From NCBI RefSeq assembly GCF_055900595.2, contig NZ_CM148325.1: DNA of 64,000 nt. One strand, given 5' to 3'. Below, one piece after another: positions 38,302 through 53,638 of the stretch. A program made the translations under genes and the position numbers. Numbering within the stretch: position 1 is the first letter of the stretch; every line of letters begins with the position of its first letter. A model generated the notes under the pieces. That model was given only the letters and a program-made list of their open reading frames with translations, had not been told where the DNA came from and ran no database searches.

Positions 38302-38700
38302 TTAATTAGAGTTATTAACAACGATATCCATCTCTAACCGGATATCTAATGCCATTAACATCCCTTCAATTATGCCCTCAGCCTTTTGTAACCTTTTCCC
38401 GATATAACCATCAGAGCAGCAATGCTTACCTGCCAGTGACATGAATGTCATACCGACTACATAATAATCTACTAATAAATCGTGCAAATCGCTGTTGTTC
38501 TTTTTCAGACGGGCCATGCACCCGCAAATGATCATCGCGTCATCGTCACAACATTGCGGGCGAGATTTTACTTTTGAAGGAATTAATCCCTTAAAACCGG
38601 CGGCAATGGACGACCAGGTCACATCTTCATGATTATTAGCCGCCCACGCTCCCCAACGCTCAAGAACCATCTGAATATCACGCATCAACTTACTCCACAA
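38302..38700 (-). CDS. quuD: Q late-gene antiterminator
   Basis: 132-aa Cys-rich ORF ([16 protein letters not shown]...HCCSDGY) upstream of the lysis cassette. Confidence 0.8.
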
Positions 38701-39720: not shown

Positions 39721-40175
39721 TACGCCTCCTGCTTGTCGCGGAGCAGCTGGAACTCGCAGCTCTGCGGAATAGTCAGGTGGCAGCCAATATTCATCGCCCA
39801 GGCTTCAACCTTACACAGGAAGACATACATCTCTCCGGTATCAAGATTGGAGGTATGGCGTAACGACTGGATAGTGGTGATATCACCGGTTACGACATCA
39901 ACCAGGTCTTTGGTTTCATAACCGAGATATGTGTGTTTGAGAGCATCTTTTACCCAAGCTGGAGTGGCGAACGTTTTACCCCTGCTGATGAGGTATTCAC
40001 TGATTTCGCTGTACCACATGTGGCTGAGTGCATTCTGGGAAAGACTGCGTTTCTCACGCCACGGTTTAAGCACCAGGCGAAAGCATTTGCCCTCCTCCAG
40101 ATAAGGCTGGATCTGCCGACCGATAGCGGTGAAGTTGCCGCGATGTAATTTGATGCCGTCTTGTGAGAGGTTCAC
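39720..40175 (-). CDS. ybcN: NinB/YbcN recombination protein
   Basis: 151-aa ORF matching remembered DLP12 YbcN / lambda NinB family. Confidence 0.8.
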
Positions 40176-40208
40176 GCTTCCCCTCCGCAGAGGTCAAACG
40201 TTGGATGC

Positions 40209-40333
40209 AAAAAAACGCAGGTGCATTTCTGCATCTGTGAAGGGAGAAGAGAGTTTGGATTGTATGTGCGCATAAACGTCCCCGTTTAGCGCAGAAGTCA
40301 CCGGAGTTGTTCAGGCTCCGATGACATGATTAT
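40209..40333 (-). repeat. Direct repeat copy A (~125 bp) with terminator-like hairpin at its 3' end on the minus strand
   Basis: About 85 percent identical to 42596-42720; minus-strand hairpin CAGATGCA-gaaa-TGCACCTG followed by a T7 run (plus-strand 40209-40237). Confidence 0.6.
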
Positions 40334-40359
40334 GGCGGGTTGATTATTGAAAATCAAAG

Positions 40360-41037
40360 TTAATCGTACGAGTCGAGTATGTTCTGAAACGCCCAGCCAT
40401 CCTCCTTAGGAACACAAGACAGAATCGAATGAATTAGATCCCCTGCGGAAAGAAGTAACCCTTCTTGCCCTTCAAGAAAATAACGCCATTTAGGTCCATG
40501 AAACAGATTGTTCCGTAACCGGAAACAAACGAACAAGCACACTGCAAGCTGAGTCTCAGGCTCGGTTGTCATAGCTTGCATGGCTGAAAAACAGTCATCT
40601 CTCGCCTTTTGAGAGGTGTGGTGTAATTCCCCGCATAGGCTTTCAAACTTGCTTTTATCATTTACATAGCGTTCTGAAAAAAAATCGTATGTACACTTGA
40701 GAACCCCCAGATCCACAACCTCCATTTGCAAAAGACGATTGGCATATTTCGCACTTTTGCCTTGCCCCCCAGCGCAATTAAGAAGTAGAGACTCGAAGAA
40801 AGAGAAGTACAAAAAATAACGATTAACGGCGGTAAGGATAGATGGGGTAATCCTGCCTTCTGCATTAATCAACTCGTCAAATTCTGATGAAAAATCCAAC
40901 TGTTCATCCTTTTCCATTATATTCGGCCATTTATTGATATTGCACATCAGTCGCTCTTGGCAATGACAGGTTTGCTCTCGGTAATGTCTCAAACGCCCCA
41001 AAAAGTAGTCTCGCAAATGCTCTAGTTGCTCGCGCAT
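40360..41037 (-). CDS. Hypothetical protein with Rx4-6H (HEPN-like) motif; candidate abortive-infection cargo
   Basis: 225-aa ORF, no recognisable phage core function; contains RLRNNLFHG matching the HEPN Rx4-6H signature. Confidence 0.4.
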   Translation of the reverse strand: MREQLEHLRDYFLGRLRHYREQTCHCQERLMCNINKWPNIMEKDEQLDFSSEFDELINAEGRITPSILTAVNRYFLYFSFFESLLLNCAGGQGKSAKYANRLLQMEVVDLGVLKCTYDFFSERYVNDKSKFESLCGELHHTSQKARDDCFSAMQAMTTEPETQLAVCLFVCFRLRNNLFHGPKWRYFLEGQEGLLLSAGDLIHSILSCVPKEDGWAFQNILDSYD

Positions 41038-41197
41038 AACAACTTCGGCGATAACCGGCTATTCGGTCGTTCTTTATACGCTACGCTTGAAGGCGCAAGG
41101 CCAACGCTTACCTTGTCACGTTCCTATTGCGGTTTTGCTGCAATGTTCCTGTCAGTCTGACATAAAAAACCCCTCAATCATCTGAGGGGATTAGACA

Positions 41198-41398
41198 TCA
41201 TTGCTTCCAATACTTTTGAACCCGGATATTCATTGGCACACAAACATTTTCATAGATAGGGCCGCTAACAGTCATGACTATATAAATACCATCAAGACCA
41301 TCAATATTAAGCGAGAGTCTATCTCCGGCTCTAACCTCACGCTCTAGTTCAATATCTTCTACTCGTCCAGTATCATCGAAAGTCACTGAATACATCAT
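41198..41398 (-). CDS. Hypothetical small protein
   Basis: 66-aa ORF between Bro-N gene and the HEPN-like gene, same strand. Confidence 0.35.
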   Translation of the reverse strand: MMYSVTFDDTGRVEDIELEREVRAGDRLSLNIDGLDGIYIVMTVSGPIYENVCVPMNIRVQKYWKQ

Positions 41399-41560
41399 TT
41401 CAAATTTCCATCTAAGTGCATGAGGTGTCTAACGAAAATACCATAAAGAGAATTTGATTACATTGAACTTTTTCAGTGCTTACTTGGCTTATCTGAAGCC
41501 TTAATCATTGCCGCCCAGTGCGCTACCTGCTTGCATCCATTCAGCGCCTAATATGTAAAA

Positions 41561-42169
41561 CTATTGCAATCTAGCCTGACGCAAATGTGGCAATACCCTG
41601 CTCCACTTATTATCCTGCCAAGGCTGGAATTTTACATGTGCCGTTTTTCTGGCAAGGATTTCGCGCGCCTTATGTAGTATCTGGGGATATTCTTGCTCGA
41701 TAGAAGTAAAGCGACCGGCTTCGCGGTGTTCCGCAACCTGAAGAAGTGGAGTAACGTTCTGGCAGGCGGTTAACATCGTATCACTTGCTCGCCATAACCA
41801 AGCAAGTGTGCAAAGTTCGTTATCAGTGAATTGTTTTGTGATCGGGGATTGTTGAACTTCTCGATCGAGAATATCCAGAACCCAGCGGCGGAACTCTTTG
41901 GCTACAGGAGTTCGTGCAAACATGGCGATCAAATGGGCTCCGCGAAGGCTAAATACTCGAGACTCCTGCATTCCACGAGGGGTGGTCACTTTGACCACCC
42001 TTGTCATCATATCTGTAAATTCATCTGAGTGACGAGAGTAAATGCGCTGAACTGCTTTATCGTCCGCATATTCCAGAGCTAAACCAACTTCAGTGGCAGT
42101 AAGCCAAATTCTGTTATTGTGGCAAATTGGGGTAAACGTCGTTTTGTGGAATGCTAATTGAGTAGTCAT
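41561..42169 (-). CDS. Bro-N domain protein (antirepressor-like)
   Basis: 202-aa ORF; N-terminal half fits Bro-N pattern (F..F.....RI.LTATEV..ALEY...RIYSRHSDEF...RVF...G..LIA....TPVAKEFRRWVLDIL). Confidence 0.6.
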   Translation of the reverse strand: MTTQLAFHKTTFTPICHNNRIWLTATEVGLALEYADDKAVQRIYSRHSDEFTDMMTRVVKVTTPRGMQESRVFSLRGAHLIAMFARTPVAKEFRRWVLDILDREVQQSPITKQFTDNELCTLAWLWRASDTMLTACQNVTPLLQVAEHREAGRFTSIEQEYPQILHKAREILARKTAHVKFQPWQDNKWSRVLPHLRQARLQ

Positions 42170-42595
42170 AGTATCACCTCATCAGGTTAACCATCACCAC
42201 CAACGACGCCAATCGACTGGTGGTGAACTGTGCAAGGTTGGCGTAACCGGCTACTCAAACCCGGCGCTCCCGAAGAAGCCCTCACACAGCCCACCATAAT
42301 TTGGGCGTAGCCGTGCTTAGCGCATAAAAAAACCGCTTAACGCGGTATGCGTTGAGTAGTATTCCGGGACGCCAATCCCGTGTGCCGATTTTGCGGCAAC
42401 GCACAGAATATAGCGCCGGATAAATAATGTCGTCAACCCTTGCAAATGGGTGGCGCGATGATCACTACTACCACTATAACCGCTCCAACTGTTGCAACTA
42501 CTTTAGGCCAAGACATCAAGATTTCCATATCACCTTTAGCTGCGAAACGAACAGAGGTTCCCATCTCTATACTGCCGAGGCCAAACACCGAATAT

Positions 42596-42720
42596 AAAAA
42601 ACCGCAGGTGCATTTCTGCATCTATGACGGGAGAAGATAGTTTGGATTGTGTGGGCTCATAAACTCCCCGTTTGGTGCAGTAGTCACCGTAGTTGTTCAT
42701 ATTCTGATGACATGATAATT
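42596..42720 (-). repeat. Direct repeat copy B (~125 bp), paralogue of 40209-40333
   Basis: Aligns base-for-base with copy A at about 85 percent identity; weaker hairpin plus T-run on minus strand. Confidence 0.6.
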
Positions 42721-42917: not shown

Positions 42918-43265
42918 ATGACTATCAAAGCGACTGACATAGAGATTCTTCATCGTTATGCTGAAGGGGTAATGGAACGTTCTAACCATCATGCAAAAAA
43001 TGTTGGTGCAGCCGCTCTTACATTGCTAGGAGGTGTTATCTGGAAAGCCCTGCCCGGCTCAATCGAGATAAGAACGTATAACGGAAGTCTTGCAAATATG
43101 GTGTGGTGGCAAAGCGAAAGAACATTAAAAAATTATGCAATCTCATACAACCATAATTCATGTGAAATTGAAATGAGAGATGAATCAGTCAAAGGTGCTG
43201 TATTATTTAGCATTTCCAACGAAACCACTCCAGAAAAAATATTATCACAGCTTTCTGAGCTTTAA
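42918..43265 (+). CDS. Hypothetical protein, opposite strand to the surrounding early-right operon
   Basis: 115-aa ORF with AT-rich upstream region and a GGCGGTG-ctaa-CACCGCC hairpin right after its stop. Confidence 0.45.
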   Translation: MTIKATDIEILHRYAEGVMERSNHHAKNVGAAALTLLGGVIWKALPGSIEIRTYNGSLANMVWWQSERTLKNYAISYNHNSCEIEMRDESVKGAVLFSISNETTPEKILSQLSEL

Positions 43266-43270
43266 TTAAA

Positions 43271-43288
43271 GGCGGTGCTAACACCGCC
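43271..43288. terminator. Stem-loop after the 115-aa gene (possible terminator, no clear T-tract)
   Basis: GGCGGTG-ctaa-CACCGCC perfect 7-bp stem. Confidence 0.35.
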
Positions 43289-43469
43289 CATACCATTACT
43301 CCACATCTTACGCAACTTGATAATTATGCTCTATTAAATACCCACAATATTTCATCAATGCATGGGTCAGCTATAAAATGTTTACCGTGGTAATTCCTGT
43401 TTTCGCAACATCTCAAAAGAACAATAAACACTGTATTTCTTCAAGTAACGAAGAATCTTTCTTTGCCCG

Positions 43470-44171
43470 TCATACACTTGCTCCTTTCAGCCCAAACTTA
43501 GCTTTGATTTCTGCGATCTTCGCCAGAGCCTGTGCACGATTTAGAGGTCTACCGCCCATGACAGGAAGTTGTTTTACTGGTTCAGGTATCGCCTCACCAC
43601 GGTTAATTCGCGCGGTCATACAGGTCAGCTCATCGGCAGCTTTACGCCGTAATTCCGCGTCAGTCAGCGCATTGGCCCGCATGTTCTGGTACAGGTTGGT
43701 AACCAACCAGTAGTGCGCGTTTGATTTCCATGGATAAGACTCTGCGTCCGGATACAGGCCACGCTTCCGGCAATACTCGTAAACCATATCAACCAGCTCG
43801 CTAGCGTTTGGCAGCCCGGCGGTAACGGATGCTTCTTCCCGGCACCAGGCAACAAACTGCCCGGGTGATGGCAGGAATGGTCGATTCTGCCGACGGGCTA
43901 CGCGCATTCCAGCGTTAACCTGTTCCATCGTGGTGATCCCATTTTCCCGGAAAGCCAGAACCCACTGGCGGCGGATTTCGTTCAGTTCGTTCTGGTCACG
44001 GTTAGCCAGGCTCGCAGGGAAAGTTGCCAGTAACTGGCTGAACACACCGTTGATGATCTGCGCTACCTGCTGTACCTGCGGCTTTTCGTCGTACTGTTCC
44101 GGCATGTTGTTGGCGATCCGACGCATCTGCTCACGGTCAAAGTTAACCATCTGTGCGGCGATGTTTTTCAT
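43470..44171 (-). CDS. P: Replication protein P (DnaB helicase loader)
   Basis: 233-aa ORF essentially matching lambda P (MKNIAAQMVNFDREQMRRIANNMPEQYDEKPQVQQVAQIINGVFSQ...). Confidence 0.95.
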   Translation of the reverse strand: MKNIAAQMVNFDREQMRRIANNMPEQYDEKPQVQQVAQIINGVFSQLLATFPASLANRDQNELNEIRRQWVLAFRENGITTMEQVNAGMRVARRQNRPFLPSPGQFVAWCREEASVTAGLPNASELVDMVYEYCRKRGLYPDAESYPWKSNAHYWLVTNLYQNMRANALTDAELRRKAADELTCMTARINRGEAIPEPVKQLPVMGGRPLNRAQALAKIAEIKAKFGLKGASV

Positions 44172-45097
44172 AGATCAACCCCGTAAATCCAGTCTGTGTT
44201 TGTCAGGTCGAGTTTTGGTTTGCTGGCTGTCACGCCTGCCTGTTGCTTGTTACGGTTGATTTCGAGCTGGGTCCACTTGTCGCGGAGTTTGGCCGGACTT
44301 AGCACGTTACCGGACCAGAAGTTGTCCTGGCATGCCCAGCGGAACAGCACGCACATGTCGCGGTGGTTACGTCCGTCACGTTCACGCATCAGGCGGATAT
44401 CGTTAGCCCACCCTGCAAAATTCGGTTTTCTGGCTGATGGCGCGATGGTCTTCACCATGTCAAACATCCACTCTGCGGCGGTCAGGTCTTCTGCTGTCCC
44501 CCACTTGCTGCCGCTCTGAATCGCAGCATCCGGTTTCACCACAGGAAGGTCGTTTTCTGGCTGATCAGAGGATTCGCCAGAATTCTCGGACGAATAAGGT
44601 TTTATATTGTCTTTTGTTAGTTTGTCTTTTGTGTTTACCTGATTCGGGTAAACGCCTTTACCTGATTTGGGTAAACTTTTCTTACCTGATTCAGGTAAAT
44701 TTACCTCTTTCAGGTAAACTTTATTTTTCTTACCTGATTCGGGTAATGTTGACCATTCACTGACCACATTATTAATACCGATATTCCGCCCGCTCTGAAT
44801 CAAAATCCCACGCTTTACCAGAACACTTTTTGCAGCAGAACACTTGTGCGGTAATATCTCGGTCAATCCAGACAGTTGCTCGTTGCTCACCCAATCCAGT
44901 TTTTTATTAAAGCCATATGTTTTGCGCATGACAGCCAGGAAGACCAGAAGCTGGTGCTGTGTTAATCCGGCCAGCATCACAGCTTCCAGCAACTCATTTG
45001 CAATGCGCGTATAACCATCATCGAGATCTGCCACGCGCGGCTCCTTTTGTGCCGCATCCGGCACTGGAAAATTGAATATCTCAGCAGTGTTTGCCAT
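44168..45097 (-). CDS. O: Replication initiator O
   Basis: ORF 44168-45187; start placed at MANTAEIFNFPVP by analogy with lambda O; iterons lie inside the gene; C-terminus conserved with lambda O. Confidence 0.85.
   Translation of the reverse strand: MANTAEIFNFPVPDAAQKEPRVADLDDGYTRIANELLEAVMLAGLTQHQLLVFLAVMRKTYGFNKKLDWVSNEQLSGLTEILPHKCSAAKSVLVKRGILIQSGRNIGINNVVSEWSTLPESGKKNKVYLKEVNLPESGKKSLPKSGKGVYPNQVNTKDKLTKDNIKPYSSENSGESSDQPENDLPVVKPDAAIQSGSKWGTAEDLTAAEWMFDMVKTIAPSARKPNFAGWANDIRLMRERDGRNHRDMCVLFRWACQDNFWSGNVLSPAKLRDKWTQLEINRNKQQAGVTASKPKLDLTNTDWIYGVDL
44635..44747. repeat. ori-lambda-type iterons inside the O gene
   Basis: Five 18-bp repeats of TACCTGATTCGGGTAAAC type (44635, 44658, 44682, 44701, 44730) with an adjacent AT-rich run. 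Confidence 0.85.
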
Positions 45098-45183
45098 AAT
45101 TCCTCCCGCAATGAGTGTGTTACGATTTGCACCTGAAAGTCGGTTCTGTTCCAGCAGACCGGCTTTCGCCATTTCTGAACCTG

Positions 45184-45723
45184 TCATATCGCCCCCAGCA
45201 TGGTAGTAACCATCGCCATCAATGGACCAGCCAGATCTGGGTCCACACGAAACATCGATACAATACCTTCACTAATTTCCTTCAGTTTCTGGTGGCGTGG
45301 TGCGTTGAGAATGACAGCCTGTTTTGCCTCACTGAGTTCCTTTTCCATTTCAGCCAGCCGAGCTATGAAGCTATCCTGCTCAACCAGGTGGCCGCGATAT
45401 TCCAGCGGTAGTACCGCCAGAATTGCCGGGGTCAGTTCACGCACGTTATTTCGGTATTTTTCAGAATCGAATTTGTTATCGAGGAAGCGGAACAGCTTCT
45501 GGCGTGCACGGCTGACATCATCAGGGAAATCGATGGTGCCGCCGCCCTGCTCCCGATACTCATTCACAATGAGTGCGGCAACGACATCCTGATTATCTAC
45601 AGCCGACCAGGCGCGGACGGCATCACGGATTTTTTCGTGGCCTGGAGCTTGTTTTGTTTGAGAACGATTTATCACCGCAGTCGGGCTAAATCCGCTAGTC
45701 TGTTGGTATGTAAGTGGTTGCAT
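45184..45723 (-). CDS. YdaT/CII-position regulatory protein (function uncertain)
   Basis: 179-aa ORF located between the cro-like gene and O, the slot occupied by cII in lambda and ydaT in Rac. Confidence 0.45.
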   Translation of the reverse strand: MQPLTYQQTSGFSPTAVINRSQTKQAPGHEKIRDAVRAWSAVDNQDVVAALIVNEYREQGGGTIDFPDDVSRARQKLFRFLDNKFDSEKYRNNVRELTPAILAVLPLEYRGHLVEQDSFIARLAEMEKELSEAKQAVILNAPRHQKLKEISEGIVSMFRVDPDLAGPLMAMVTTMLGAI

Positions 45724-45792
45724 AATTGACTCCTTTAGTTTGAATTGACTGTTAAGTTGATTGCTTATTGTTAAAGAGCGTGAAATGGAAAT

Positions 45793-46023
45793 TTAAGCTG
45801 CGTTCTTTTCAGTGTGTGGAAACAACTTCGGAAGATCCGGGCGAATCTGGTATGCCTTCACTACTCCACCAGTAGCCGTAACAATGCTGCCGACATGTTC
45901 AGGGGATACCTTTGCTTTGTTGTGAAGCCACTTATAGACGGCCTGCTGTGAAACTTCGCAGGCAGCGCCTAGTTTCTTTTGTGAACCAACGATATTGATC
46001 GCTGTTTTGATGGCTGGGTTCAT
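45793..46023 (-). CDS. Cro/YdaS-like HTH regulator
   Basis: 76-aa ORF divergent from cI with HTH-like segment (LGAACEVSQQAVYKWL). Confidence 0.7.
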   Translation of the reverse strand: MNPAIKTAINIVGSQKKLGAACEVSQQAVYKWLHNKAKVSPEHVGSIVTATGGVVKAYQIRPDLPKLFPHTEKNAA

Positions 46024-46127
46024 AACAACCTCCGTGGTTAATTTGAATCAAGATTAAAACTATGGTTGTTTTTAGTCAACAACCATTTTCGTTTGATGAA
46101 ATAAAACCTTGGTTGTACATTTGGACT
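46024..46127. promoter_or_regulatory. Immunity-region divergent promoter/operator region (OR-like)
   Basis: Intergenic between cro-like and cI genes; inverted repeats built on GGTTGT/ACAACC (ATGGTTGTTTTTAGTCAACAACCAT, AACCTTGGTTGTACA). Confidence 0.55.
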
Positions 46128-46817
46128 ATGAAAACAACACTCTCAGAAAGACTTAAAGAAGCCAGATTAGCGCGAGGCCTTACACAAAAGGCGCTTGGGG
46201 ATTTGGTCGGGGTTAGCCAAGCAGCTATTCAGAAAATCGAAACAGGGAAAGCTAACCAAACAACTAAAATCGTGGAGATCGCGAACGCTTTGGGTGTGCG
46301 CGCAGAATGGTTATCTTCTGGCGTTGGAAATATGTCAGACAGTACAGTGCAACCAATACAAACAACTGTCAGCCATTCCAAATACTTTAAGATTGACGTT
46401 CTTGATATCGAAGTGAGTGCCGGGCCGGGAGTCATCAACCGTGAGTTTGTAGAAGTTCTACGTTCGGTTGAGTATTCGTTTGACGATGCTCGTCACATGT
46501 TCGATGGCAGGAAGGCGGAAAATATCCGTATCATTAACGTACGCGGTGACAGCATGTCAGGAACGATCGAACCAGGTGATCTGCTATTCGTTGATATCAC
46601 TGTTAAATCTTTCGACGGTGATGGTATCTATGCGTTTCTGTACGACGACACAGCCCATGTAAAGCGCCTGCAAATGATGAAGGATAAACTGCTGGTTATC
46701 TCTGATAACAAGAGCTACTCACCGTGGGACCCAATCGAGAAAGACGAGATGAACCGGGTATTCATCTTCGGGAAAGTCATCGGGAGCATGCCGCAGACGT
46801 ATAGGAAGCATGGATAA
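46128..46817 (+). CDS. cI: CI-type repressor (HTH plus S24 LexA-like autopeptidase domain)
   Basis: ORF 46062-46817; start at MKTTLSERLKEARLARGLTQKALGDLVGVSQAAIQKIE (HTH); C-terminal S24 motifs (RGDSMSGTI, KRL). Confidence 0.85.
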   Translation: MKTTLSERLKEARLARGLTQKALGDLVGVSQAAIQKIETGKANQTTKIVEIANALGVRAEWLSSGVGNMSDSTVQPIQTTVSHSKYFKIDVLDIEVSAGPGVINREFVEVLRSVEYSFDDARHMFDGRKAENIRIINVRGDSMSGTIEPGDLLFVDITVKSFDGDGIYAFLYDDTAHVKRLQMMKDKLLVISDNKSYSPWDPIEKDEMNRVFIFGKVIGSMPQTYRKHG

Positions 46818-46912
46818 TTCGACATAAATTCAACAAGTTAACTTTGGCTTCAAAAAAGCATCGATAACATTGCATTATATTTTTCCTTTTGTCTAACTTA
46901 AAAGGATGAACA

Positions 46913-47638
46913 ATGGAAGAACGTGGGAATTACCTAATAGACCCCCTAGAAGTAATTGGTTCTGGCGGTTTTGGCCTTGTAGAAAAAATAAGGTTATATA
47001 ACTCACAAAGAAAAATTTGTGGTCTATATGCCAGAAAAATTTTACGACCTGATGCAACAGATCCTGAACTCTTTACCAGATTTGAACGAGAAGTAAGATA
47101 TCAAACTGAATGCCTGCATACTAATATTGTCCAAATATTCATATGCCACTTACAGAATGCTCAGCCTTGGTTCGTAATGGAACTAGCAGAAACAAATCTT
47201 GAAGAAGAAATAAAAAGTGGAACTCTTACAAAGGCTGAAAAAATCTCTATTGTAAAAATGGTACTAAATGCCGTCGGATGGATTCATAAGAAAGGATATC
47301 TTCATCGGGATATAAAACCACTAAATGTACTAAAATTTAAAGATGGAATTTATAAGTTATCTGACTTCGGCCTTGCAAAAAATGTGTCACCAGATGCCAA
47401 TACACAGCTATTAACACAAATTGGCCAATACCCCGCTACTCCTAAATACTTTGATTACAACGTTTTCCTCAACGGATATTCAAAACAATCAGATATATAT
47501 TCAATTGGTATTTTAATTGAAGAATTAAATATTGATGGTTTTGATGATATAATAAACAAATGTACGCATAGACAACTTAACAAAAGATTCCTGACCGTAG
47601 AGCAGATCTTTGAGGAATTGGAGTTGAAACGCTTATGA
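46913..47638 (+). CDS. Eukaryotic-like (Hanks-type) Ser/Thr protein kinase, minimal 241-aa form
   Basis: Gly-rich loop GSGGFGLV, catalytic loop HRDIKPLN, DFG (SDFGLAK); very AT-rich; directly downstream of cI in the rexAB slot. Confidence 0.8.
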   Translation: MEERGNYLIDPLEVIGSGGFGLVEKIRLYNSQRKICGLYARKILRPDATDPELFTRFEREVRYQTECLHTNIVQIFICHLQNAQPWFVMELAETNLEEEIKSGTLTKAEKISIVKMVLNAVGWIHKKGYLHRDIKPLNVLKFKDGIYKLSDFGLAKNVSPDANTQLLTQIGQYPATPKYFDYNVFLNGYSKQSDIYSIGILIEELNIDGFDDIINKCTHRQLNKRFLTVEQIFEELELKRL

Positions 47639-48378
47639 TTAGCATACTCTCATCATCCATATTTTCTGTACCAAAACATAATGGCAGGGAAAATCAAGAT
47701 AGCGTGCTTTATCCACTTCAAACACCAAATGGTTATCTTATGGCTATAGCTGATGGGGTTGGTGGTTATAAAGGAGGAAAAGAAGCATCTGCAGCAGTAA
47801 TAAATCATTTGTATAGTATTAAAGACAGCTTCACTCATGAAGACAATGTCTTATCCTTACTTAAGACCCTACAAGAAAAGGTGGCATCTCTTTCGTCAGT
47901 TGATAAAGAATTAGCATCTGCTGCTACAACTTTAACAATGTGCCTACTTCACAATCAAGGTCTAACAATTATACATGTAGGTGACTGTCGTGTTTATTTA
48001 AAAAATGGAAATAAGCTAATCCAATTAACAACAGATCATACTCAACATCAAATGTTGATAGATAGCGGTATTTATACAGCTCGACAGCTCAAAAATGCAA
48101 AAGGTAAAAATATTATTACAACTGCACTTGCTGCCAAGATCCCCCTTCAACATCAAGTCATAAATATTGATAAAGATGAACTTCCTCTTGACGATGGTGT
48201 TCTATCTCTATTCATCATGTCTGATGGCGCGCATACCTTTTGGGAGCAACGCCCACGATTTTCTTACCGTACATTGTCAACCGCATCAAGGTTTGCCTCC
48301 AGCCTAATGCGAAGAATAGAGACAAAAGGCCCGACTGACGATTATTCTCTTATAGCGGTAAATGTAAAGTATTTGTAA
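47635..48378 (+). CDS. PP2C-family Ser/Thr protein phosphatase
   Basis: 247-aa ORF overlapping kinase stop by 4 nt (ATGA); motifs AIADGVGG, GDCRVY, TTDHT, SDG. Confidence 0.75.
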   Translation: MISILSSSIFSVPKHNGRENQDSVLYPLQTPNGYLMAIADGVGGYKGGKEASAAVINHLYSIKDSFTHEDNVLSLLKTLQEKVASLSSVDKELASAATTLTMCLLHNQGLTIIHVGDCRVYLKNGNKLIQLTTDHTQHQMLIDSGIYTARQLKNAKGKNIITTALAAKIPLQHQVINIDKDELPLDDGVLSLFIMSDGAHTFWEQRPRFSYRTLSTASRFASSLMRRIETKGPTDDYSLIAVNVKYL

Positions 48379-48382
48379 ACTT

Positions 48383-48410
48383 CCCGGCCACCGTGCCGGG
48401 TTTTCTTTTA
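48383..48410 (+). terminator. Intrinsic terminator after the cI-kinase-phosphatase unit
   Basis: CCCGGC-caccgt-GCCGGG hairpin followed by TTTTCTTTT, 5 nt after the phosphatase stop. Confidence 0.8.
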
Positions 48411-48774
48411 TCCCCTCCCCTCATCACGTATACCGTTCAAAAAACCACCACAATCTCCCTTCAGTTATCGCTATGCGATGCAAGTCACAAAATAAATCCA
48501 TCCTAAATACAACCAGTTACATCTAAAACAACCAATAAAACAACTTTTGTTGTTGACGATAAAACAACTATAGTTTTAAATAAATTCATCGCAACAACAC
48601 AACGATACGGCAACCACCTGATTCACCGTTGCGATGACCGCTTAGATCCGCAGCTTGAATTTCAGCAGGCTTCGGGGAGTGCGAGGGATGAAACGGACGC
48701 GTGAACGTCGGTGTGACCAGCTGAAATCAACTCAACATTTCATACCTTAGTCGCTTCAACGAGGCGGCTTAGTT

Positions 48775-49065
48775 ATGACAACCGGCGGCCATCCACCGCC
48801 TGAATACGCGCAGAAGTCTTTATATGTTCAGCAGCCCAGCTTACGGGCAGGAGTTTTTATGGTTCATCAACATTACGGAACGCAGACCGTTAATCGAGGT
48901 GCGGTCATGCCAGGAATGCTGGTCAAACACAAAGATGGTACCTGGACTGCATCAGCTAATTTACGCGGACGGCTTTATCTGCATCGCGGCATCGAGCGCA
49001 CTTATACCCGTGATTTGCTCGTGGAAGTTTTTCTCGACGGACGCGGTAACGGCCTGAATCACTAA
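48775..49065 (+). CDS. Hypothetical protein upstream of gam (kil/cIII position)
   Basis: 96-aa ORF in the early-left operon; no family recognised. Confidence 0.35.
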
Positions 49066-49141
49066 CCCCCCTTTCCTGTTTTCCTTATCAGCCTGGCATT
49101 TCGCGGGCGATATTTTCACAGCCATTTTCAGGAGTTCAGCC

Positions 49142-49438
49142 ATGAACGCTTATTACATTCAGGATCGTCTTGAGGCTCAGAGCTGGGCGCGTCACTACCA
49201 GCAGATCGCCCGTGAAGAGAAAGAGGCAGAACTGGCAGACGACATGGAAAAAGGCCTGCCCCAGCACCTGTTTGAATCGCTATGCATCGATCATTTGCAA
49301 CGCCACGGGGCCAGCAAAAAAGCCATTACCCGTGCGTTTGATGACGATGTTGAGTTTCAGGAGCGCATGGCAGAACACATCCGTTACATGGTTGAAACCA
49401 TTGCTCACCACCAGGTTGATATTGATTCAGAGGTATAA
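49142..49438 (+). CDS. gam: Gam RecBCD inhibitor (short form)
   Basis: 98-aa [63 protein letters not shown]... matching lambda GamS. Confidence 0.9.
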
Positions 49439-49443
49439 AACGG

Positions 49444-50229
49444 ATGAGTACAGCACTCGCAACGCTGGCTGGGAAGCTGGCTGAACGTGTCGGCATGGAT
49501 TCTGTCGACCCACAGGAACTGATCACCACTCTTCGCCAGACGGCATTTAAAGGTGATGCCAGCGATGCGCAGTTTATCGCATTGCTGATCGTTGCCAACC
49601 AGTACGGCCTTAATCCGTGGACGAAAGAAATTTACGCCTTCCCTGATAAGCAGAACGGCATCGTTCCTGTGGTGGGCGTTGATGGCTGGTCCCGCATCAT
49701 TAATGAAAACCAGCAGTTTGATGGCATGGACTTTGAGCAGGACAATGAATCATGTACATGCCGGATTTACCGCAAGGACCGTAATCATCCGATCTGCGTT
49801 ACCGAGTGGATGGATGAATGCCGCCGCGAACCATTCAAAACCCGCGAAGGCAGAGAAATCAAGGGACCGTGGCAGTCGCATCCCAAACGGATGTTAAGGC
49901 ATAAAGCTATGATTCAGTGTGCCCGTCTGGCCTTCGGATTTGCTGGTATCTATGACAAGGATGAAGCCGAGCGCATTGTCGAAAATACCGCATACACTGC
50001 AGAACGTCAGCCGGAACGCGACATCACTCCGGTTAACGATGAAACCATGCAGGAGATTAACACTCTGCTGATCGCCCTGGATAAAACATGGGATGACGAC
50101 TTATTGCCGCTCTGTTCCCAGATATTTCGCCGCGACATTCGCGCATCGTCAGAACTGACACAGGCCGAAGCAGTGAAAGCTCTTGGATTCCTGAAACAGA
50201 AAGCCACTGAGCAGAAGGTGGCAGCATGA
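49444..50229 (+). CDS. bet: Bet single-strand annealing recombinase
   Basis: 261-aa ORF matching lambda Bet. Confidence 0.9.
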
Positions 50230-51259: not shown

Positions 51260-51541
51260 ATGCATTTTTCTGGCAGCGGGCTTCATATTCTGTGTGCTTA
51301 TGCTTGCCGACATGGGGCTTGTTCAGTGACACCTCAGCAGGAAAACGCCCTTCGCAGCATTGCCCGTCAGGCTAATTCTGAAATCAAAAAAACCAGACAG
51401 CAGTTTCCGGATAAAAACGTCGATGACATTTGCCGTAGCGTACTGAAGAAGCACCGCGAAACGGTAACGCTGATGGGATTCACACCGACTCATTTAAGCC
51501 TGGCAATCGGCATGTTAAACGGCGTTTTTAAGGAACGGTGA
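51260..51541 (+). CDS. Hypothetical protein (ea-region)
   Basis: 93-aa ORF in tandem; start uncertain. Confidence 0.3.
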   Translation: MHFSGSGLHILCAYACRHGACSVTPQQENALRSIARQANSEIKKTRQQFPDKNVDDICRSVLKKHRETVTLMGFTPTHLSLAIGMLNGVFKER

Positions 51542-51639
51542 ACATGAAAAGCAAAATCATCAGGGAGCTACAGGCTCCTTTTTTATTATTCGCATTCACC
51601 CTCAAGCGTATTAACCAACAATTCAGGGATTAATGAAAG

Positions 51640-53561: not shown

Positions 53562-53638
53562 TGGCGCGCCCTGCAGGATTCGAACCTGCGGCCCACGACT
53601 TAGAAGGTCGTTGCTCTATCCAACTGAGCTAAGGGCGC
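53562..53638 (-). tRNA. argU: tRNA-Arg (UCU anticodon), prophage attL
   Basis: Reverse complement gives GCGCCCTTAGCTCAGTTGGATAGAGCAACGACCTTCTAAGTCGTGGGCCGCAGGTTCGAATCCTGCAGGGCGCGCCA, cloverleaf-compatible with CCA end. Confidence 0.9.

Follow-up and report, generated by a model that had tools for sequence, protein, structure and literature searches.

A nut-like leader without boxB, N or put in the early-left region of a DLP12/Bievrevirus-type lambdoid prophage

In the textbook lambdoid phages, the early genes are controlled by N and the nut sites, and in HK022 they are controlled via the put RNA. In the Rac prophage, KilR is silenced by Rho and NusG. Lambdoid phages lacking N as such are already known; for example, LLS and ST64B have Q but no recognizable N, and put was suggested for LLS, as a guess, by Casjens and colleagues (PMC12315714). 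No paper was found on early control in the DLP12/Bievrevirus group. Here we analyzed positions 48411–49141 of a 64,000-nucleotide (nt) window, the whole stretch of DNA under study, in whose coordinates all positions are given; they lie between the terminator of a prophage immunity operon and gam, where an initial annotation had recognized neither N nor cIII. Our results indicated that what is new here is a lambdoid early-left region, apparently nut-derived, without boxB, N or put, in which the left promoter (PL) is followed by a conserved 271-nt leader and by a kil gene, and that this layout is shared with isolated, active phages.

Region 48379–49160 was translated in six frames, stops were masked, and the result was compared with Pfam, PHROGs and NCBIfam under permissive thresholds; neither the N nor the cIII family was matched even at an expectation value (E) of 10 or below, and Kil was the sole family to appear (by phrog_294 with E 6e-38 and by NF008465, “FtsZ inhibitor protein,” with E 1.8e-17). 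An N-like protein was likewise not found in either early operon of the window. The absence of N and cIII was thereby borne out, together with other statements of the initial annotation, namely the spacing of ~730 base pairs (bp) from the terminator (ending at 48410) to gam (from 49142), the presence of a 96-amino-acid (aa) open reading frame (ORF) at 48775–49065, and the presence of Q, exo, bet and gam; neither the 96-aa ORF nor a shorter one proved to be an N or cIII homolog, the former matching Kil profiles. Early control in this prophage must be of a non-N type. The operon of the right promoter (PR), on the minus strand, consists of cro (45793–46023), a 179-aa YdaT/“CII-like” gene (45184–45723), and then O, P and Q. 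As the “cII” of this operon encodes a YdaT-domain protein rather than lambda CII, no lambda-type CII is there as a partner for cIII and the absence of the latter is expected; it accompanies a CII of the YdaT type.

To judge from profile fit and variation, only the last 68 codons of the 96-aa ORF behave as coding sequence. Positions 1–70 of the 73 in the NF008465 profile aligned to Kil residues 1–68, AGGAG is found 5 nt upstream of the ATG at 48859, and the 207-bp kil is annotated both in RefSeq and in the phage 4A7 record. Among related sequences, the frame upstream of 48859 showed 9 synonymous versus 17 non-synonymous variants as well as a stop/sense polymorphism, a 5-nt indel and a frame-shifting duplication, and the 68-aa kil was intact in variants whose upstream frame is shifted. 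On these grounds the 96-aa ORF is an over-call, better annotated as a 68-aa KilR-type gene. Its match to NF008465 reached 63 bits, under the curated cut-off of 92, which places this Kil, by its sequence, in a related or sister subfamily rather than with the Rac KilR equivalog; Kil is predicted to act as an inhibitor of cell division (FtsZ).

Comparison with related phages revealed an intact and active family. The block from the terminator to gam (763 bp, compared over its full length) was 90–97% identical in at least 15 phage records, including 4A7, 4C10, Perceval, Turner, IdasGreatGrand and the PhiR phages, which have in common the gene order cI, two variable genes, a gap, kil, gam, bet and exo. 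The relatives also have the DLP12-type nin genes emrE, ybcK, ybcN, ninE, rusA and ylcG. In the complete genome of 4A7 (49,168 bp, 70 coding sequences, genus Bievrevirus), a Q-like gene is present and an N-like gene is found nowhere. The Bievrevirus prophages 4C10 and 4A7 spontaneously release ~5e6 plaque-forming units per ml, induction raises the 4A7 titer ~100-fold, 4C10 is inducible too, and the titers of both were determined by plaque counts, with E. coli C as the host for 4C10 (bioRxiv 10.64898/2026.05.26.727859). In addition, 2231 (41%) of the 5426 complete E. coli genomes searched carry the leader, O157:H7 included. Because the N-less layout is shared with plaque-forming phages and with all these genomes, it is the normal state of a large active family, and the absence of N should not count as a sign of a defective prophage. 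This family, without N/nut and put, is nevertheless abundant and active, and the leader and a boxA on the right side are concrete candidates for the passing of its early terminators.

Homology to the related phages begins at the immunity-operon terminator, from which 75 of 80 related viral loci aligned starting at query position 1–4; by terminator scan it has a stem of 6 GC pairs followed by TTTTCTTTT. Inverted repeats in the left operator (OL) match those of OR between cI and cro (I1, 29 nt; I5, 19 nt, 95%). A consensus promoter scanner made no call at the PL site, so the position of PL is one that we infer, with a -35 TTGACG (48553–48558), a 17-nt spacer, a -10 TTAAAT (48576–48581) and a start at ~48588; this layout and the first 25 nt of the transcript resemble those of UPF_BP1, phi80, S9-5 and HK639. 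In an alignment of 78 copies (66 distinct variants), the operator and promoter segment was the most diverse of all, with a nucleotide diversity (pi) of 0.32, as expected from immunity specificity, and in ~700 E. coli prophages with other immunity regions homology begins at 48588/48589.

From that point on, the leader had a pi of 0.025, lower than the 0.049 of kil third positions and the 0.043 of the kil–gam spacer, which indicates moderate (~2-fold), not extreme, constraint; an earlier impression of very strong purifying selection, gained from counts of variable columns, was abandoned on account of these values. Its 5′ end is C-rich and G-poor: of the first 30 nt, 11 are C and 4 are G. A second copy was not found by nhmmer in the window or in phage 4A7, and an Rfam scan of 43000–50000 at E of 10 or below gave only chance matches and no family for the leader. 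The leader core (48622–48740) was no more stable than shuffled sequence (z +0.8). The 66 variants were at least 95% alike, and no relative of lower identity was found upstream of ~48738 in 50,697 phage records. As side observations, the best out-of-family nhmmer match of the leader profile was to HK639 (locus L004, 239–308, minus strand, E 0.008 in a 99-kb search), between a tail-fiber gene and a UmuD-like gene and far from PL, and may be due to chance. The PL transcript opens with a CA-rich run, CAACAACACAAC (48593–48603), containing CACAAC, which is near the CACAACA consensus bound by the host small RNA GcvB, and similar CA-rich starts were seen in phi80, HK639, S9-5 and phiEt88. The idea of an AgvB-like anti-small RNA, suggested by this CA-rich end, was rejected, as AgvB genes are located elsewhere, downstream of PR′ (PMC4104026), and a preprint on the Pas small RNA was not relevant either.

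The downstream part of the leader is structured. Segment 48738–48805 had a folding-energy z of -4.06, with none of 200 shuffles equally stable, and the 16-bp helix of its hairpin block pairs CAU (48741–48743) with AUG (48775–48777) and buries GAGG. The block is kept in HK225, phi80 and Enterobacter phage ENT1, and two of its pairs have changed in a compensatory manner. Directly before it, phi80 and ENT1 have the terminator that follows the gene annotated N (phi80) or its positional counterpart (ENT1), and from this position we conclude that 48588–48737 holds the place of nutL plus N.

Comparison with the N/nut systems of lambda, 21, P22 and phi80 suggested that the leader descends from one of the nutL type, boxB and a usable boxA having been lost. 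The map order (terminator, OL/PL, leader, early-left genes) is the same, a boxC-like motif and a boxA right after cro stand at the corresponding positions, and the hairpin block is common to phi80; in contrast, there is no N gene here, no boxB at either site, and the boxA of the leader is degraded. In particular, 48649–48723 aligned locally but weakly to lambda +63 to +141, just downstream of the nutL boxB (5 of 500 shuffles reached the score), nhmmer placed the lambda match at the same spot, and the GGCTTTGGGGTGTGTGA of the lambda boxC region likewise starts at +81, as does GGCTTCGGGGAGTGCGA here. The boxA-like GACCGCTTAGA does not fit GCTCTTTA and is a weak assignment. A boxB hairpin was found neither after PL nor after cro, and no long-range partner of the boxC-like motif was found beyond chance (47 of 300 shuffles); in lambda and in a 21-like locus (L204), boxC can be seen to pair with the segment ahead of the N start, and this pairing is not kept here. 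When a degenerate boxC motif was searched in viral contigs, three classes of PL leader emerged: 97 loci were of the window type, 11 were of the lambda type and possessed boxA and boxB, and a phage-21-like class had a consensus boxA, a hairpin of its own and an N gene with an arginine-rich N-terminus.

On the right side, GCTCTTTAACAA after cro is the only exact match to the consensus boxA GCUCUUUAACAA in the 64 kb, none being present in the PL leader, and no G+C-rich hairpin was found in the 45 nt between it and the start codon of the next gene. It is kept in ~43 of 84 related loci, those sharing this cro allele; in 4A7, whose cro allele is a different one, cro and ydaT are separated by 30 nt and the early operons contain no boxA. 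It is established that boxA binds NusB–NusE and that it functions in rrn operons and at suhB with no need of N (PMC5725501; PMC3177189). The likeness to these rRNA operons and to the suhB leader lies in an exact GCTCTTTAACAA in the nascent PR transcript with neither boxB nor N; the difference is that here the element is confined to the PR side and to this cro allele, and its Nus role is predicted. Since it lies ~30 nt before the ribosome-binding site, a suhB-like translational effect is equally possible. Where nut-like or put-like signals might have been expected, remnants of nut, boxA-only or boxC-like, were found, and boxB and put-like RNA were not. A candidate second leader-like element at the end of cro, in which CGCAGCTTGAATTTC ... 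AATCAACTCAACA were set against the boxA and AATCAACTTAACA (6 of 1000 shuffles), was collinear and seen by both blastn-short and local alignment; it was not recovered by nhmmer, was given little weight and was rejected.

The put system of HK022 and HK639 resembles this locus in that an N-less lambdoid phage has a non-coding element directly after PL; the first ~25 nt of the transcript are similar between the window and the put-carrying S9-5, phiEt88 and HK639, and HK639 also has a YdaT-like gene, Kil and Gam. The difference is that the conserved CGAACGGC...GGGTTCAGGATGAACGGCAAT core and the ~70-nt two-stem fold of put are absent here. A covariance model was built from eight put sequences (HK022 putL and putR, HK639 putL and five others), with 18 pairs and a fold supported by covariation; with filters off over the whole window, its best match had an E of 0.6 and lay elsewhere, with none in 48588–48860 or in the early PR transcript near cro. 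Two further matches, at the Q-proximal end of the PR operon, were noise (E 1.2 and 3.9). A put-type RNA in the early operons was therefore rejected, the matches of the covariance model being noise. As in LLS and ST64B, Q is present here without a recognizable N; what differs is that a test for put excluded it here and that the nut sites have left visible remnants.

From PL to 51562, and from PR to the end of P, the scanner found only weak, short stems, the strong ones coming later. In the PL operon, exo and three small ORFs precede the first strong terminator-like hairpin, which is followed by a traR-like gene, xis and int; the same hairpin was also found in 4A7 and in 56 of 84 related loci. 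Between PR and Q, strong terminator-like hairpins were observed on the minus strand at 42346, 41189 and 40236, and in 4A7, too, strong terminators stand between P and Q. The PL-operon hairpin stands inside a 31-aa ORF (51538–51633, plus strand; MNMKSKIIRELQAPFLLFAFTLKRINQQFRD), where 4A7 annotates a 29-aa hypothetical coding sequence (gp38), and translation through this ORF could modulate termination at 51562. The nin region (40150–42700, minus strand) lies between P and Q and includes small ORFs of unknown function and, at 41561–42169, a gene resembling that of an anti-repressor (Ant); its genes are bounded by terminator-like hairpins, the strongest at 41189–41170, and look like inserted “moron” cassettes.

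As no strong terminator separates PL from kil-gam-bet-exo or PR from cro-ydaT-O-P, and the genes are tightly packed, a phage antiterminator would not be needed for them. We hold with moderate confidence that this is a complete native early-left region, in which the delayed-early genes would be transcribed without a phage antiterminator, the leader would gate kil and the boxA would aid PR. In this proposal, the toxic kil would be gated by the leader in cis: Rho would have access to its C-rich, G-poor first 45 nt, and the hairpin at 48741–48777 would hide the ribosome-binding site and the start codon. In this immunity type, the boxA after cro would recruit host NusB/NusE-type factors and lend the PR transcript toward Q an rrn-like resistance to Rho. 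The kilR locus of Rac is similar in having a KilR-family gene downstream of a repressor-controlled left promoter, a YdaT-type protein and no N; it differs in that Kil here belongs to a sister subfamily, the sequence of the leader showed no relation to anything tested, and Rho dependence is a property that we infer. Several points weigh against this proposal. The Rho gating of kil is suggested by base composition and by the analogy to Rac; the leader resembles that of lambda only weakly (shuffle p ~0.01; nhmmer E 1.1); the leader core lacks unusual stability and its conservation is only ~2-fold; and boxA is not the general solution of the family, because 4A7 has none. In addition, strong hairpins precede Q and xis/int, also in the viable 4A7, and therefore either a readthrough device or internal promoters must exist.

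Such a device could be the leader itself. As no element but the leader is shared by the entire family, a new antitermination signal is a live rival, and it may tentatively be pictured as an N-independent processive signal, a boxB-less nut site with a boxC-like motif that in some immunity types is paired with the boxA after cro, although we think this on the whole unlikely. The signal would load host elongation factors or act as RNA on RNA polymerase and, if real, would explain how the terminators before xis/int and Q are passed without N or put in ~40% of E. coli genomes. The more specific version, in which a put-unlike RNA or a boxB-less nut-type site loading Nus factors acts in cis from PL through 51562 to xis/int, appears doubtful to us. 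It accords with the exact position of the leader, that of nutL/N or putL in related phages, with a sequence unchanged among prophages of different immunity and less diverse than neighboring neutral sites, with the boxC-like motif common to true nutL sites, and with a terminator conserved downstream in the same operon, viable phages included; against it, the leader matches neither the put model nor any Rfam family, its core is not unusually structured, it lacks a usable boxA, and the PR operon has no second copy although the terminators before Q are more numerous. That the leader is instead functionless, a hitch-hiking remnant of a nutL leader kept similar by recent recombinational spread of a PL–kil module, seems to us quite unlikely. 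Its diversity is indeed just ~2-fold under that of neutral neighbors, and its core has no unusual fold and no homolog below 95% identity was found, which leaves covariation nothing to compare. However, in the same loci the adjacent kil third positions and kil–gam spacer are twice as diverse, the recombination breakpoints fall at the 5′ edge of the leader and not inside it, and distant phages retain the hairpin block, with changes that compensate each other.

Of the explanations offered by the initial annotation, a non-N mechanism stood, a small protein gone unrecognized is unlikely, and a deletion was not supported. An arginine-rich mini-ORF had indeed been overlooked in its account of the short ORFs, of which the 96-aa ORF was correctly listed. 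It is the first ORF after PL and has the highest arginine/lysine density of any ORF in both early operons; GGGGAG lies 8 nt upstream of its start codon, its RTRERR recalls the RRRERR of lambda N, its arginine core is invariant bar one singleton, with the common variants inside being synonymous or ATG-to-GTG, and it overlaps a small hairpin with a GUGA loop. The view that it encodes a small N-like RNA-binding peptide, fused to Kil in one haplotype and serving as the antiterminator, is nevertheless very improbable. Composition accounts for the resemblance to N, since 266 of 2000 shuffles that preserved it scored equally well against lambda N, arginine codons being what the CG-rich stretch yields in this frame; 20–31 aa would be too short for the NusA- and RNA-polymerase-binding parts of N, as generally known from lambda; neither PL nor PR offers a boxB target; and no relatives were found by profile or tblastn in phages. 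Furthermore, the ATG at 48688 is GTG in 61 of the 66 variants, the TAG at 48748 is CAG in 39 and TAG in 27 of them, three have a 5-nt indel within the region, and this polymorphism, like the 9:17 ratio of synonymous to non-synonymous changes, is unlike a conserved protein. The mini-ORF is thus not significantly N-like; it is probably not a functional protein, and the mini-N idea was rejected. The remaining explanation, that the region is the deletion scar of a defective prophage that has lost N, cIII and neighbors, can draw on the short PL–gam distance compared with lambda and on a leader resembling a nutL leader stripped of boxB, and is in our estimate hardly credible: the same 763-bp block occurs, syntenic and at 90–97% identity, in isolated phages and also in thousands of prophages, and the plaque-forming 4A7 shows the same layout with N nowhere in its complete genome. 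If N was lost, this happened long ago and became fixed in a lineage that still functions, and it does not reflect decay of this particular copy. As a separate observation on the mini-ORF, the TAG/CAG polymorphism at 48748 is balanced and either closes the mini-ORF or fuses it in frame, via the 96-aa ORF, to Kil (the CAG haplotype), so that about half of the family could make a Kil of at least ~128 aa with an arginine-rich N-terminus, if the upstream start is used.

Table 1. Positions in the window of the early-left region, its leader and associated features
Feature	Position	Strand	Details
Q	38302–38700	-	phrog_79
rrn-type boxA, GCTCTTTAACAA	45768–45779	-	Exact; 13 nt after the cro stop, nutR position
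Terminator of the immunity operon (cI-kinase-PP2C)	48383–48410	+	CCCGGCCACCGTGCCGGG plus T-run
Palindrome ATCGC-TAT-GCGAT upstream of OL	48467–48479		Read from sequence; conserved
OL/PL operator repeats and inferred promoter	48496–48587	+	Repeats match OR; homology breakpoint
PL leader, in place of nutL plus N	48588–48858	+	Conserved; one copy per genome
Degraded boxA-like element, GACCGCTTAGA	48636–48646	+	By eye against the lambda PL leader; lambda nutL has GACGCTCTTAA
Arginine-rich mini-ORF	48655–48750	+	31 aa from TTG; 20 aa, MKRTRERRCDQLKSTQHFIP, from ATG 48688
boxC-like motif, GGCTTCGGGGAGTGCGA	48668–48684	+	+81 from the inferred start
Hairpin block	48741–48799	+	16-bp helix 48741–48777, then GGCGG-N7-CCGCC 48783–48799
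kil, KilR-type FtsZ inhibitor	48859–49065	+	68 aa (207 bp); phrog_294, E 1.2e-38
gam, first gene of the gam-bet-exo recombination module	49142–49438	+	Pfam Gam, E 3.4e-65
First strong terminator-like hairpin of the PL operon	51562–51590	+	AGGGAGCTACAGGCTCCTT plus T-run

Some further features of the region were noted. The perfect palindrome upstream of the hypervariable operators lies within a conserved island of 30 nt (48466–48495), which had just 4 variable columns among the 66 variants, with variable flanks, and may be a candidate protein-binding site. Its half-sites, ATCGCAAC and GTTGCGAT, also border the first 49 nt of the PL transcript (48588–48595 and 48629–48636). The immunity operon consists of cI and the genes for a Ser/Thr kinase (Pfam Pkinase, E 3e-32) and a PP2C phosphatase (E 5e-12), all on the plus strand; the latter two (46913–48378) occupy the rexA/rexB position after cI, where relatives have other gene pairs, such as a gene of unknown function with an ASCH-domain gene in 4A7 and TW14359, and this position is a swappable slot, probably for phage exclusion. 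Within the O gene, 44630–44750 contains at least five copies of TTTACCTGATTCGGGTAAA-like inverted repeats, which were the source of spurious Rfam matches to mir-26 and rliD and are probably the iterons of a replication origin. At the other end, int is directly adjoined by a tRNA-Arg gene (anticodon tct; 53562–53638, minus strand), which we take to be argU, the attachment site of the K-12 cryptic prophage DLP12. By its gene content, the window carries a lambdoid prophage of the DLP12/Bievrevirus type at this tRNA-Arg(tct) gene, and the element resembles a fuller relative of DLP12.

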